Positions 17,668-47,234 are shown, numbered from the stretch's first letter. The stretch: 64,000 bases of DNA from Pyrinomonadaceae bacterium (GCA_031396065.1 JANNJZ010000418.1:9030-73029), one strand, 5' to 3'. Numbers and translations: made by a program. The notes: generated from the sequence alone by a model not told the origin.

Positions 17668-17850
17668 GATGGGGCTAAGATGGTGGCGGGACGTGTTGAT
17701 ACGAAGCCAGCCGAAGCGATCCCTTGACGACCGCGAGGCGCGTAAATACTGGCTCATATCGTTTCGTAAAACTAGGTAATACCGGTGGCATGGGACTTAA
17801 AATCCGTTGTCCGAAAGGGCGTGCGGGTTCGACTCCCGCCCTCGGCACCA
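17668..17850 (+). repeat. Direct repeat A: ~180-nt element ending in a tRNA-like anticodon arm, long variable arm, T arm, acceptor strand and CCA
   Basis: GGGACTTAAAATCCGTTGTCCGAAAGGGCGTGCGGGTTCGACTCCCGCCCTCGGCACCA resembles the 3' two-thirds of a type II tRNA-Leu(UAA). The upstream 120 nt (GGGGCTAAGATGGTGGCGGGACGTGTTGATACGAAGCC...) are not tRNA-like. No matching acceptor 5' strand or D arm lies at the correct distance. Confidence 0.6.
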
Positions 17851-18343
17851 TTACTAATCCCACTGTTAACGCGACTTCCACCAACTTAGCTGGCAGGATG
17901 TTCTCAGCGCCCAAGGACTGCAAATGGGCCGAGATGGTGACACTTCTAACCCTACTTTTTCTTGAACCTTACCCACCTGCAGGTAAATGGAAAGCTTGAT
18001 CCAGAAAACCCTTCGTTAAGTAATTTGACGAGACTCATACAAATGGAATATTGTGCGCAGAGCCGATCCGCATCATTGGCTGGCTCACGACCCGAAGTCC
18101 TCGGAACCCTTGAAACCAGCCGCGCACACCCATCACGATGTCGGGTCCTAGGAATCGGCGGAATACTGTAACAACGCTGGATCTTGTGGATCGCGGAACG
18201 TCAGACTGGATCCTTTTCGTTCCAAGACCCGGTCGCAGTCTGGCTCGAACACATGGTGACCGAACCCGACTGGCCTTTGCGTCCATCGTGCGCCCTAACG
18301 TGCGGTTAGCCCGCCTTACGACTCAGCAGGAAATGCCGACGCA

Positions 18344-19738
18344 GTGCGTAACGTTCTAATAATCAACGGAAACGGACTAGGTTCAGTTGCGTGCAACTGT
18401 GGCTCATTGGCTACATTGCTGCGCGGCGCCGAAGTTTTCGATGGCGTTCAGGAAACATCTGTCGAAAAACTCTGCTCAGTTGGTAATCTCGTGCCTGATC
18501 TCATACTGCATCGCTTCTTGCTGAGGGACTGGGCCGACCGCGGAAGGGAGATCTGCAAGACGACCTGGGCTTCGGCCAAGACGTTTGTTGTTTTGTGTGA
18601 CCAGGCTGTCCAGCGCAAGAAAGGTATCTCGTCAGCTCTAATTGATGTTGATGATTTTCTCTTCTGTCCGTATCAGGAGAATGAGCTGTTGCTTCGCCTC
18701 ACACGTCTTATCAAGGACTTACCTCAATCTGCTTCCGGCTCGGTCAATAAGGCCGCAAACCGTGCGCCAGACCGGGATCTGTTGATTGGTGATAGTCAGA
18801 GTTTTCTGCAAGCTCTTCGTAAGGTCAGTTTGATGGCACAGTCCAAAGCGCCCGTTGTCATTACGGGAGAGACAGGAAGCGGAAAGGAATTGTTGGCGCG
18901 GGCGATTCATTACCGGAGTGTCCGAAGTTCCAAGCCATTCATACCGGTTAATTGCGGCGCGCTGCCCGATGAATTATTCGAGAACGAACTCTTTGGCCAT
19001 CATAAAGGCGCCTATACCAACGCCTGGTCGGATGAAAAAGGACTAATCGCCGAGGCAGAACAAGGAACTCTCTTTCTCGACGAAGTGGACGCTTTATCTC
19101 CTGCGGCTCAAATCAAACTTCTGCGCTTTCTTCAAAGTGGCGAATACCGGCCACTCGGTTCCGCGCGAACTGTAGTCGCGGACGTTCGCATTATTGCCGC
19201 CACCAATGCGGACTTTAACTGGCTCGTCGAACAAAAGCTTTTTCGCGAAGACTTACATTATCGGCTCAACGTGCTGACTTTGTCTCTACCTGCCCTCCGT
19301 GACCGAGGCACTGATGTGGTTCAACTCGCCTCACACTTCTTATCGGTTTATGCCAGGGAATATAAACGCTTAACGCCGCGTCTGTCCGACACCTCCGCGC
19401 GAAAACTCTTGAATTATTCCTGGCCAGGAAATGTCCGCGAGCTAGAAGGAGTTATTCAGCGCGCGATCGTCTTACAACAATCGGAGGTGCTAGCGCCGGA
19501 AGATATTGAACTGCCCAAGTGCAAAGAAGAAGATGCCGGTGAGTCCGAGTTGTTTCGCCAGCAGAAATCTTTGGTCATTCGCCAATTCGAGCGGAAGTAC
19601 ATTGAGCGCTTACTCGCGATTCATGGCGGCAACATCTCAAAAGCGGCAAAAGCAGCCGGCAAGGATCGGCGTTCGTTTCAACGACTGGTCAGCAAGTACA
19701 CCTCGGATCGCAAGTGTCACCCAAGCGATTCGGAGTGA
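18344..19738 (+). CDS. Sigma54-dependent transcriptional activator (bEBP) with a degenerate receiver domain
   Basis: VVITGETGSGKELLARAIH (Walker A), GTLFLDEVD (Walker B), ELFGHHKGAYTNA (GAFTGA variant), FREDLHYRLNV, WPGNVRELE and a C-terminal Fis-type HTH. The start is a GTG. Confidence 0.85.
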   Translation: MRNVLIINGNGLGSVACNCGSLATLLRGAEVFDGVQETSVEKLCSVGNLVPDLILHRFLLRDWADRGREICKTTWASAKTFVVLCDQAVQRKKGISSALIDVDDFLFCPYQENELLLRLTRLIKDLPQSASGSVNKAANRAPDRDLLIGDSQSFLQALRKVSLMAQSKAPVVITGETGSGKELLARAIHYRSVRSSKPFIPVNCGALPDELFENELFGHHKGAYTNAWSDEKGLIAEAEQGTLFLDEVDALSPAAQIKLLRFLQSGEYRPLGSARTVVADVRIIAATNADFNWLVEQKLFREDLHYRLNVLTLSLPALRDRGTDVVQLASHFLSVYAREYKRLTPRLSDTSARKLLNYSWPGNVRELEGVIQRAIVLQQSEVLAPEDIELPKCKEEDAGESELFRQQKSLVIRQFERKYIERLLAIHGGNISKAAKAAGKDRRSFQRLVSKYTSDRKCHPSDSE

Positions 19739-19919
19739 GCCCCTTCCCCTGCAATGTTATGCGGGGACCGTCCCGCGTGCGCTGCGGTTAGGTTCCCGCA
19801 GCTTCGACCCCAAGCAAAATCTGCTTTTTCCTCACGCCGACTAACTTCTGATGCGGGAAGAACTCCGCACCCCGCCCTGCCTGGCCCGCAAAACCCGCGC
19901 ACTAACGCAATGCCGGTTC

Positions 19920-19935
19920 TGGTATCAGCCTTGCT
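19920..19935 (+). promoter_or_regulatory. Candidate sigma54 (-24/-12) promoter
   Basis: TGGTATCAGCCTTGCT compared with the consensus TGGCACGNNNNTTGCW: GG and GC are present at the correct 10-nt spacing. It lies ~45 bp upstream of the ATG at 19980 and directly downstream of the bEBP gene. Confidence 0.55.
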
Positions 19936-46061: not shown

Positions 46062-46066
46062 ATGGA

Positions 46067-47038
46067 ATGAAGACAACCTCAAAACTTGGCGCCGACCAGA
46101 TCGCTGACGCAATTGAGCGAAGTTATGGGGGCCTGGACAATATTCGCGGCTCCGCCGTCCGGGGCTTGTTGAGAATTCGCGAAGCCAAGACGAATTCTCG
46201 TCGGCGCGATTTGGAAAACGCGCAAAAGTCAGGAGACACCGACGCCGTGCGACGGTATACCGCGATGGTTGCCGCCGGCCAACAGATGATCGCGGTACTT
46301 CGGCGCGACGCGGAAATCTCAGCGACTAAAATCCCCGAGCGCAAACACGACGCCGTGATCGTGTATGGACAGGTCGCGCGACAAAACAAAGCGCAAGTTG
46401 ACCCGGTAACCAGCGCGCGGGTGGCCGTTTTTGATCAAACCCAAGAGGCCATGGGGAAACAGTTAGCCGTCACCACGACAGACAATCAGGGTCATTTCAA
46501 GTTGGAAGTGCCGATTGCCGGCCAGGTCACTGACTCCCAAAACGTTCGCCTTGGCTATGTCGCGGCCTTTGATCAGAATGGCCAGAAAGTTTTAGCCGCG
46601 CGAACCATACCGCTCCTGGCTGGATCATTGAGTTATCGCGACCTACTGATCACCGGTGACTCCGCACAAGAATGGACTGTCGACACGTCCAAACCGCAGG
46701 CACCAACTGAGGACCGCGTGTGCGCGGCCGATGAGTGGGTGGTCCGTGGACGAGTGACCGACGACGGTGGCACGGGTTTACCCGATCTGATTGTCACCGT
46801 CCACGACAAAGATTTTCTTTTCGACGACCGCCTCGGGCAGGCTAAGACCGATCAGAACGGATACTACAGCCTCAGCTATCGAACCGAAGACTTTCGCGAC
46901 CTTATCGAGAGAAAACCTGATATCTACATCGACGTCATGAATAAGGAGGGGAGGCAGCTTTACACCTCGAAACGGGCAATTAGATACGAAGCCGGCCGGG
47001 TCGAAATCATCAACGCGGTGATCTCATCCCCCAAGTAA
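46067..47038 (+). CDS. Hypothetical protein with transthyretin/carboxypeptidase-regulatory-like modules; last gene of the eCIS block
   Basis: The ATG at 46067 is preceded by AGGAGGA. The track's start at 45821 lies inside the upstream gene. Motifs are TTDNQGHFKLEV and KTDQNGYYSLSY. Confidence 0.7.
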   Translation: MKTTSKLGADQIADAIERSYGGLDNIRGSAVRGLLRIREAKTNSRRRDLENAQKSGDTDAVRRYTAMVAAGQQMIAVLRRDAEISATKIPERKHDAVIVYGQVARQNKAQVDPVTSARVAVFDQTQEAMGKQLAVTTTDNQGHFKLEVPIAGQVTDSQNVRLGYVAAFDQNGQKVLAARTIPLLAGSLSYRDLLITGDSAQEWTVDTSKPQAPTEDRVCAADEWVVRGRVTDDGGTGLPDLIVTVHDKDFLFDDRLGQAKTDQNGYYSLSYRTEDFRDLIERKPDIYIDVMNKEGRQLYTSKRAIRYEAGRVEIINAVISSPK

Positions 47039-47053
47039 ACTGCAGAGAGTTAA

Positions 47054-47234
47054 GATGGGCTAAGATGGTGGCGCGACGTGTTGATACGAAGCCAGACAAA
47101 GCGATACCTTGACGACCGCTAGGCCCGTAAATACTGGTTCGTATCGTTTCGTAAGACCAGGTGATGCCGGTTTCACAGGACTTAAAACCCGTTGTCCGCA
47201 AGGGCGTGCGGGTTCGACTCCCGCCGCTCGCCTC
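47054..47234 (+). repeat. Direct repeat B (pairs with 17668-17850), with a degenerate acceptor end
   Basis: GGGCTAAGATGGTGGCGCGACGTGTTGATACGAAGCCAGACAAAGCGATACCTTGACGACCG...GGACTTAAAACCCGTTGTCCGCAAGGGCGTGCGGGTTCGACTCCCGCC aligns co-linearly with repeat A. Most positions are identical, and the variable-arm to T-arm stretch has only 1 mismatch. It ends GCTCGCCTCC instead of CTCGGCACCA. Confidence 0.75.

Follow-up and report, generated by a model that had tools for sequence, protein, structure and literature searches.

Here, we analysed a 64,000-nucleotide (nt) stretch of DNA from a Pyrinomonadaceae bacterium (GCA_031396065.1 JANNJZ010000418.1:9030-73029; hereafter the window), in which the gene cluster of an extracellular contractile injection system (eCIS), together with a sigma54-dependent activator, is bracketed by two direct repeats, copy A on the left and copy B on the right. 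We found that both copies belong to a family of ~185-nt units, which are probably the recombination junctions left by integrative islands of Pyrinomonadaceae with the tRNA-Leu(UAA) gene as their target. Each unit consists of a 5' part of ~125 nt, the X arm, and a core of ~58 nt that corresponds to the 3' half of this tRNA. The putative eCIS island of the window carries a core and the remnant of a second arm, Y1, at its left end, X and core at its right end and no integrase in between (17851-47052), and thus appears as an element that is flanked by attachment (att) sites and free of a recombinase.

The two copies align without gaps over 169 nt (17672-17840 and 47057-47225, 89% identity) and with gaps over 174 nt (17672-17844 versus 47057-47230, 89%, E=3e-61), in agreement with the co-linear repeat of ~175 nt reported in a preliminary description of the window, and neither sequence alignment nor an nhmmer profile search yielded a third copy within the 64 kb. 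The profile covers copy A at 17668-17850 (profile positions 3-185) and copy B at 47053-47225 (positions 2-175). Based on these matches and, for copy A, on an alignment of 50 units, we place the X arm of copy A at 17666-17792 and that of copy B at 47053-47177, 15 nt past the last eCIS stop codon; the cores follow at 17793-17850 and 47178-47235, all on the plus strand. Copy A terminates in ...GCGGGTTCGACTCCCGCCCTCGGCACCA at 17850, that is, with an acceptor strand and CCA, while copy B retains the T arm to 47225 and is degenerate in its final 10 nt (GCTCGCCTCC), where acceptor strand and CCA would be expected; both ends had been described in this way before. Over the 48 nt from GGACTTAAAA to CCCGCC, read directly from both sequences, the copies differ at 2 positions.

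The 3' ~60 nt of both copies resemble the anticodon arm, the variable arm and the T arm of tRNA-Leu(UAA). This assignment, already proposed for the window, was confirmed by the cores (17793-17850 and 47178-47225), whose sequence, starting at the anticodon stem and reaching the 3' end, is nearly identical to that of canonical tRNA-Leu(UAA) genes called by ARAGORN in related loci (L012, L020, L026, L051, L054, L065, L073, L077 and L079 for copy A). The copies themselves fail as functional tRNAs if a cloverleaf called by ARAGORN, or by Rfam RF00005 at no less than 29 bits, is demanded: neither was called by ARAGORN or by Rfam at the gathering score, the sole call in the window being a tRNA-Val at 50057. 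When Rfam was relaxed to E<=10, copy A matched tRNA-Sec best, and only weakly (22.8 bits, E=0.039; the tRNA-Sec cut-off is 47). The preliminary description had also stated that a 5' acceptor strand is absent. A degenerate acceptor-like strand, GAUGGGG at 17668-17674, is in fact able to pair with CCUCGGC, but we read it as a piece of a putative protein-binding repeat and not as a tRNA feature. In a plasmid collection, blastn matches were limited to the tRNA-like 3' part and led to ordinary tRNAs, and a viral collection gave 0 matches to the X pattern.

Across the related loci, the stretch from GGACTTAAAA to CCA, which makes up the 3' ~58 nt of the unit, is virtually the same sequence as the 3' half of the canonical tRNA-Leu(UAA). 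The canonical gene, which ARAGORN resolves as GCCGGGG TG GCGG AATGGCAGA CGC T ACGGA CTTAAAA TCCGT TGTCCGNAAGGACGT GCGGG TTCGACT CCCGC CCTCGGC A CCA, lies 1.8-6 kb upstream of the unit and on the same strand in all loci that hold both (9/9). Compensatory changes in the variable arm of the units recur among the canonical tRNAs, as in L054, where the tRNA has GACCGCAAGGTC, and in L019 and L009 the same tRNA 3' half stands behind unrelated left-hand sequence. The core thus tracks the 3' half of the host tRNA, also behind unrelated arms, which is the usual signature of tRNA-targeting islands. Moreover, 22 units, none of them truncated by the end of a contig, diverge precisely behind CTTAAAATCCGTTG, where the 3' strand of the anticodon stem ends, and run from there into several distinct right-hand sequences, some of which form conserved families.

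Two additional features of the loci touch the core and its flank. A partial unit in L065 (1925-2008, minus strand), 79 nt past the canonical tRNA, has a core that differs in the variable arm and the T stem (GAGCGCAAGGTC; GTGTGCGTTCGACTCACAC) and looks derived from the tRNA-Leu of another host, which hints at transfer between hosts. One family of flanks (L003, L012, L014, L020 and L054) carries, ~60-90 nt past the CCA of a unit or tRNA, the hairpin GCAACGGAGTTAACTCCGTTGC, which mimics an anticodon arm (CAACGGA CTTAAAA TCCGTTG) and could be a tRNA terminator, a second core-type site, or both.

Is the unit a peculiarity of the window or a common element of this lineage? We found it in 94 genome or metagenome loci of Pyrinomonadaceae (Acidobacteriota), the named ones being without exception Pyrinomonadaceae or Blastocatellia. 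A scan of species-representative genomes with the 21-mer GACGTGTTGATACGAAGCCAG, taken from the part that is not tRNA-like, returned 13 genomes with one locus each, and those with a named taxon were all Pyrinomonadaceae, Blastocatellia or Acidobacteriota; a gapped-pattern scan of metagenomes returned 79 contigs. As parts of X had to be matched exactly in both scans, the variation visible in the collection is limited. Among all loci, the nhmmer profile search retrieved 104 units with a retained 5' end: 59 reach the CCA end, 28 end at profile positions 140-165 (6 of them at contig ends), 3 end at positions 166-179 and 14 are cut earlier. The orientation of the units is identical in 20/21 multi-copy contigs, and their neighbours in different genomes are unrelated genes.

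Many copies in many gene contexts, several of them truncated, are also what would be expected from a generic dispersed repeat, of the type of a tRNA-derived miniature inverted-repeat transposable element (MITE) or short interspersed element (SINE), that flanks the eCIS genes by chance; the independent Logan assembly, which breaks at the repeat (L095 ends inside copy B), could be cited for it as well. We regard this explanation as highly improbable. The 21-mer scan gave a single locus in each of the 13 genomes, the orientation is shared within the contigs and the tRNA-Leu gene lies upstream wherever it is present; neither terminal inverted repeats nor target-site duplications were noticed at the units, their 3' part follows the canonical tRNA, including a variable-arm variant that also occurs in a canonical tRNA, and integrase genes adjoin the cores (see below). 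Thus, the diverse contexts represent variable island cargo at one oriented type of locus, and the occurrence of the unit at many unrelated sites, which the preliminary description had named as grounds for dropping an integrative origin, was not observed in this form.

We then compared the arms on both sides of the core. The X arm opens with two tandem 11-nt repeats, which occupy 17666-17687 on the plus strand of copy A (AGGATGGGGCT / AAGATGGTGGC). In the standard X variant the first repeat is AAGATGGGGCT and the second AAGATGGTGGC; a variant at L041:2140 has AAGATGCGGCT in both places, and one at L094:14545 has ACGATGACGCT followed by AAAATGACGAC. The two repeats change jointly across these divergent variants (GGGG/GTGG, GCGG/GCGG and GACG/GACG). 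On the other side of the core, a conserved Y1 arm of ~130 nt separates it from an integrase gene; it contains CATCAACTTAGC and, 75-95 nt past the CCA, GAAGATGGGGCTAAGATGGTGACAC, which is the same motif of 22-24 nt that starts X. Such paired, co-varying repeats on both arms resemble arm-type integrase sites and are unlike an RNA helix, and the 11-nt repeats would be the arm sites to which the integrase binds.

A decayed Y1 arm follows copy A in the window. An alignment by MAFFT with the flanks behind tRNA-Leu or units in L077, L079, L073, L041, L013 and L057 places it at 17851-17985 (plus strand), as the putative integrase-side (P'-type) arm of the eCIS island, with CACCAACTTAGC at 17879-17890 and a degenerate second motif of two 11-nt repeats, AAATGGGCCGAGATGGTGACAC, at 17922-17943. 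Its end aligns with the last codons of the minus-strand integrase gene, where the similarity stops; the integrase itself has been deleted. Indeed, the integrase open reading frame (ORF) of L079 matches the window at 17917-17789 by tblastn. Y1 at one end and X with core at the other end were found in five elements (L073, L077, L079, L041 and the window).

Searches with the box II motif of tyrosine recombinases, followed by tblastn, revealed integrases or fragments of them just 3' of the cores, encoded on the opposite strand and reading toward the core, in L041, L046, L057, L071, L074, L077, L079, L013 and L021. Two full-length proteins match Pfam Phage_integrase (8e-16 and 2e-33), and the L073 integrase has no relative in the viral collection. 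At the eCIS island itself, what remains beside the att site is the Y arm with the putative last integrase codons, in contrast to L041, L046, L057, L071, L074, L077, L079 and L021, where an integrase gene lies next to it. The large ORFs between tRNA-Leu and unit encode variable cargo (phosphodiesterase, M78/HTH, glyoxalase) and not integrases. The possibility that X is itself minus-strand integrase coding sequence was discarded, as the integrases terminate 100-280 nt past the unit. An intact integrase of the same family also lies just upstream of the canonical tRNA-Leu(UAA) in L073 (902-2173, plus strand), on the same strand and ahead of the conserved upstream region of the tRNA, and an integrase fragment occupies the same place in L079 (6123-6414, minus strand). 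This side is unexpected for the island layout and may reflect a resident integrase beside the primary site.

The closest relative of the eCIS cluster, L094, allowed us to ask to which side X belongs. Its last eCIS gene shares 65% amino acid and 70% DNA identity with that of the window, and 9 kb of aligned eCIS DNA are 76% identical. In L094, an X arm that is 88% identical to copy B starts 9 nt past the homologous stop at 10990. In both genomes X comes behind the same final eCIS gene, which ties it to its left-hand DNA, as would be expected of an element's far arm; a relative with the eCIS genes at the same site and without repeats, the second finding that would have spoken against an integrative origin, did not turn up, since the closest one carries the unit. 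The unit was seen in both genomes of the window type whose eCIS right end was visible. The left-end proteins of the L094 island were not among the matches listed. Copy A is 90% and copy B 88% identical to the L094 copy, and A and B are 89% identical to each other. As the two copies are no closer to each other than either is to L094, the eCIS insertion did not create a second copy of the 5' ~125 nt, and the X arm of copy A would belong to the left-hand island, of which it would be the island-end (P-type) arm, and that of copy B to the eCIS island.

This linkage also bears on the idea that the unit is a resident pseudo-tRNA, located on the chromosome or an old island, which serves as a landing pad (a decoy attB) for incoming elements, X then being target flank and the duplication arising from recombination between two such pads. 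Insertion into a non-functional copy would spare an essential tRNA, and the 22 units that join the right-hand sequences of other element families after the anticodon stem do have X on the target side. However, X stays with the left-hand DNA, as illustrated by its position behind the final eCIS gene in both the window and L094, whose eCIS DNA is only 70-76% identical, the five elements mentioned above have Y1 at one end and X at the other, and the gene contexts of the units are unrelated across genomes. We therefore find this idea quite improbable.

Based on these correlations, we propose that the unit is a junction of islands and that the circular form of an island would carry an attP composed of X (~125 nt), core (~58 nt of the tRNA 3' half, from anticodon stem to CCA) and Y (~130 nt), with a tyrosine-integrase gene next to Y reading toward the core. 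A crossover that falls into the anticodon-loop region, be it that of the tRNA or that of an earlier copy of the core, would generate the order tRNA or previous unit, Y, integrase, cargo, X, core. Repeated integration would build up a tandem array of one orientation, in which each internal junction reads X-core-Y. Copy A would then be the junction between an older left-hand island, which contributes X, and the eCIS island, which contributes the core as its left, attL-type boundary and the decayed Y arm and has lost its integrase; copy B would be the eCIS island's own X arm and core, on its attR-type side. The identities, positions and orientations of the units and the adjacency of integrase genes in related loci are direct observations, from which we infer the recombination activity, the role of the 11-nt repeats in arm binding and the order of insertions. 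The attL/attR-like scars suggested in the preliminary description are thus supported in substance, by the tRNA core, the neighbouring integrases, the decayed Y after copy A and the same arm in the closest relative. The suggestion needs correction in two respects: only the 3' ~58 nt would be the att duplication, the 5' ~125 nt being an arm borne by the element, and the locus would be one slot of a tandem island array instead of a single insertion.

Several points weigh against this proposal. The window contains no intact integrase of the core-adjacent family; its one integrase-like gene (3076-4020, plus strand) is distant, wrongly placed and wrongly oriented, and by ARAGORN no tRNA-Leu was found in the 64 kb. 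Most Y-adjacent integrases in the related loci are fragmented or frameshifted, and many of the islands may be fixed. No unit was found within 8-10 kb of more distant eCIS relatives (the search near the activator covered L104, L105 and L096-L099, which are more distant relatives or contigs that start too close), and the island lineage may have acquired the eCIS genes at some point instead of having carried them all along. The flank families are incompletely sorted: in L020 and L054, the canonical tRNA is followed by the hairpin-type flank, which elsewhere follows terminal units, although a unit lies 2-2.6 kb further on. Finally, X is long and highly conserved for an att arm, with a mean column identity of ~89% compared with 70-76% in adjacent coding DNA, its ends weakly resemble the 5' half of tRNA-Leu, with GGTGGCGG and AATGGC in common and colinear, and the nearest upstream long ORF is co-oriented with the unit in 48 cases and opposite in 20, a bias that an att site does not predict (68 units of L001-L092 with a long ORF ending at most 350 nt upstream; the ORF calls are crude).

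The last three features count in favour of another explanation, namely that the unit is an island-borne gene whose product is a structured RNA resembling a tRNA: derived from tRNA-Leu(UAA), this RNA would have an insertion of ~95 nt in the D-loop, and the integrases would simply make use of its tRNA-like 3' half. Indeed, RNAalifold pairs the 5' UGGGG with the 3' CCUCG, and all one-sided changes there are compatible with pairing (GU to GC in 4 units, UG to CG in 1), and a hairpin formed by GAUACGAA...UUCGUAUC is mostly retained and shows one compensatory pair in L094:14545. Yet among 50 aligned distinct units, from scans that required exact X matches, RNAalifold found no two-sided compensatory change in X; the covariation term is -0.68 kcal/mol, and the covariation is entirely that of variable-arm and T-stem pairs. 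The copies fold no better than shuffled controls (z = -0.33 and -1.05), ARAGORN and Rfam leave the unit uncalled, most units have an extra G in the anticodon stem, the sequences upstream are unrelated between loci with no conserved promoter visible, and the 5' motif recurs outside the putative RNA, past the CCA, in the Y arm. We thus consider an RNA gene unlikely, and the structured RNA of unknown class that the preliminary description had offered as its alternative did not find support, its covariation being confined to the tRNA-like part. A tRNA with a D-loop intron was likewise rejected: the acceptor candidates GCUAAGA and GCCGAAG do not covary with the invariant 3' strand, and GAUGGGG is part of a repeat that also occurs past the CCA.

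As a related and similarly doubtful speculation, X and core together could be an expressed, island-borne tRNA-Leu-like RNA with the ~95-nt D-loop insert, or a tRNA-like module in the 3' untranslated region of cargo operons such as the eCIS operon. If this were true, the RNA would have a function of its own, e.g. in the processing or stabilisation of the transcript or as a decoy for tRNA-binding factors, and would explain the conservation of ~89% across species next to genes with 70-76%.

Returning to the recombination-junction reading, we characterized the interval between the copies. It contains the sigma54-dependent activator at 18344-19738 (Pfam Sigma54_activat, 3e-62), whose homologues lie upstream of eCIS genes in L096, L098, L099, L104 and L105, and the eCIS structural and accessory genes at 20346-47038, with Pfam matches to sheath, gp19 tube, T4_baseplate, Pvc16_N, AAA+/WHD, eCIS_core, Phage_GPD, Phage_base_V, DUF6519 and TTR/CarboxypepD_reg, all on the plus strand. 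Neither the box II motif search nor tblastn detected an integrase in 17851-47052, and six integrases compared with the window by tblastn matched only 3184-4020 and the tRNA-like/Y stretch 17789-17917. The earlier view of the interval as activator plus eCIS genes without a recombinase therefore stands, and so does that of a GC-richer interval, if only modestly: its GC content is 57.4%, compared with 53.6% to the left and 53.8% to the right, a rise of ~4 points, and the tetranucleotide profile is slightly different (r 0.88-0.89 versus 0.915). A shift of this modest size fits transfer within the family. The window proteins have their best named relatives in Pyrinomonadaceae, in agreement with the origin of the window; compared with the 13 genome loci, they show synteny only at the repeat unit. 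Activator and eCIS loci are common in Pyrinomonadaceae and stand in differing gene contexts; an empty site was not recovered.

In the simplest reading, an island of the tRNA-Leu(UAA) family picked up or carried the eCIS cluster and later lost its integrase. The eCIS cluster and its activator would then be cargo on an island that lacks an integrase and resembles a cis-mobilizable element; this island would be either fixed in place or mobile only via a related integrase acting in trans.

The same sequence was present in an independent assembly, L095 (Logan SRR20217201_59423), whose 29,397 nt match the A-B interval in size and end inside copy B. The Logan contigs obtained for the window were all shorter and did not extend its contig. 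In L105, whose sheath gene is 70% identical, a NusG-family gene (5951-6484, plus strand) lies between the sigma54 activator and the sheath gene.

How does this organisation relate to known systems? In attP sites of the lambda/P4 type, arm-type integrase sites flank the core. The islands described here share with them an identity block that reaches from the anticodon region to the tRNA 3' end, short direct repeats on both arms, set some way off from the core, and an integrase gene that converges on the core, while their P-type arm is more conserved and weakly resembles the tRNA 5' half, and the integrase is presumed to bind the repeats. Williams is said to have defined, in 2002, sublocation classes of tRNA integration that include the anticodon loop. 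Pavlovic et al. reportedly described, in 2004, cis-mobilizable elements and their accretion in the ICESt1/ICESt3 family of Streptococcus thermophilus. Like these elements, the eCIS island has the att sites of an integrase family, lacks an integrase of its own and stands in tandem with related elements; unlike in the ICESt1/ICESt3 case, neither a conjugation module nor an active partner element was identified here, and mobilization is putative. The eCIS loci of the Afp/PVC type are regarded as horizontally moving clusters. The present one shares with them sheath, tube, Pvc16, AAA+, eCIS_core and spike components, and its differing contexts in related genomes are consistent with horizontal movement; beyond what holds for such loci generally, a vehicle can be named here: in these Acidobacteriota it is a tRNA-Leu(UAA) island whose att arms can be recognised.

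The closest parallel in layout is provided by the ssrA-specific islands of Dehalococcoides, which are lined up one after another on the downstream side of a small-RNA gene of single copy number; a direct repeat of the 3' end of this gene delimits each of them (McMurdie et al. 2011, PMC3146451). Their integration module lies beside attL on the reverse strand, an additional conserved sequence occurs just upstream of the repeat, and some islands without the module have been interpreted as possible cis-mobilizable elements (PMC3146451). All of these traits, from the tandem layout and the 3'-end repeats to the reverse-strand integration module by attL, the members without it and the conserved sequence upstream of the repeat, recur in the islands of Pyrinomonadaceae. 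The differences concern the target, which is tRNA-Leu(UAA) here and transfer-messenger RNA (tmRNA) in Dehalococcoides; the recombinase, a tyrosine integrase compared with DsiB, which belongs to the serine recombinases; the repeat, with ~58 nt from the anticodon stem onward compared with 20 bp from the T loop; and the conserved arm of the element, ~125 nt compared with ~15. The cargo here includes a 29-kb eCIS, unlike that of the Dehalococcoides islands.

An integrase-less cargo island at a tRNA gene is thus a known kind of arrangement, and the finding of an eCIS on it does not reveal a new mechanism. It does point to a concrete vehicle for the spread of eCIS genes in soil Acidobacteriota, a family of islands that target tRNA-Leu(UAA). 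The unit, or the 21-mer GACGTGTTGATACGAAGCCAG within it, is usable as a marker of the variable island array in genomes and metagenomes of Pyrinomonadaceae. Two warnings follow for annotation and assembly: the units mimic tRNA fragments or novel RNAs, and the repeats fragment short-read assemblies.

The DNA to the left of copy A contains further genes. The tyrosine-integrase-like gene at 3076-4020 matches Pfam Phage_int_SAM_5 and, weakly, Phage_integrase, and is 28-30% identical to the integrases of L021 and L073; it is probably interrupted, as its ORF stops at 3798 and the tblastn alignment continues to 4020. On the minus strand, 4427-14396 encode proteins with trypsin-like peptidase, EAD1 (effector-associated domain) and PLD-like domains, among them a 923-amino-acid Trypsin+PLDc_2 protein; judged by its content, this run may be a conflict or defence system that belongs to the island left of copy A. 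A Gp49-like (DUF891) and HTH_37 gene pair at 15531-16198 (minus strand) forms a toxin-antitoxin module of the HigB/HigA type. Just left of copy A, at 16371-16976 (minus strand), we found a second sigma54 activator in the form of a C-terminal fragment (AAA lid and helix-turn-helix), 38% identical to residues 300-376 of the eCIS activator. At the start of the window, 978-1932 hold five to six tandem copies of a repeat of ~165-168 nt with 60-93% identity, probably part of a gene for a repeat-domain protein that runs off the window start.

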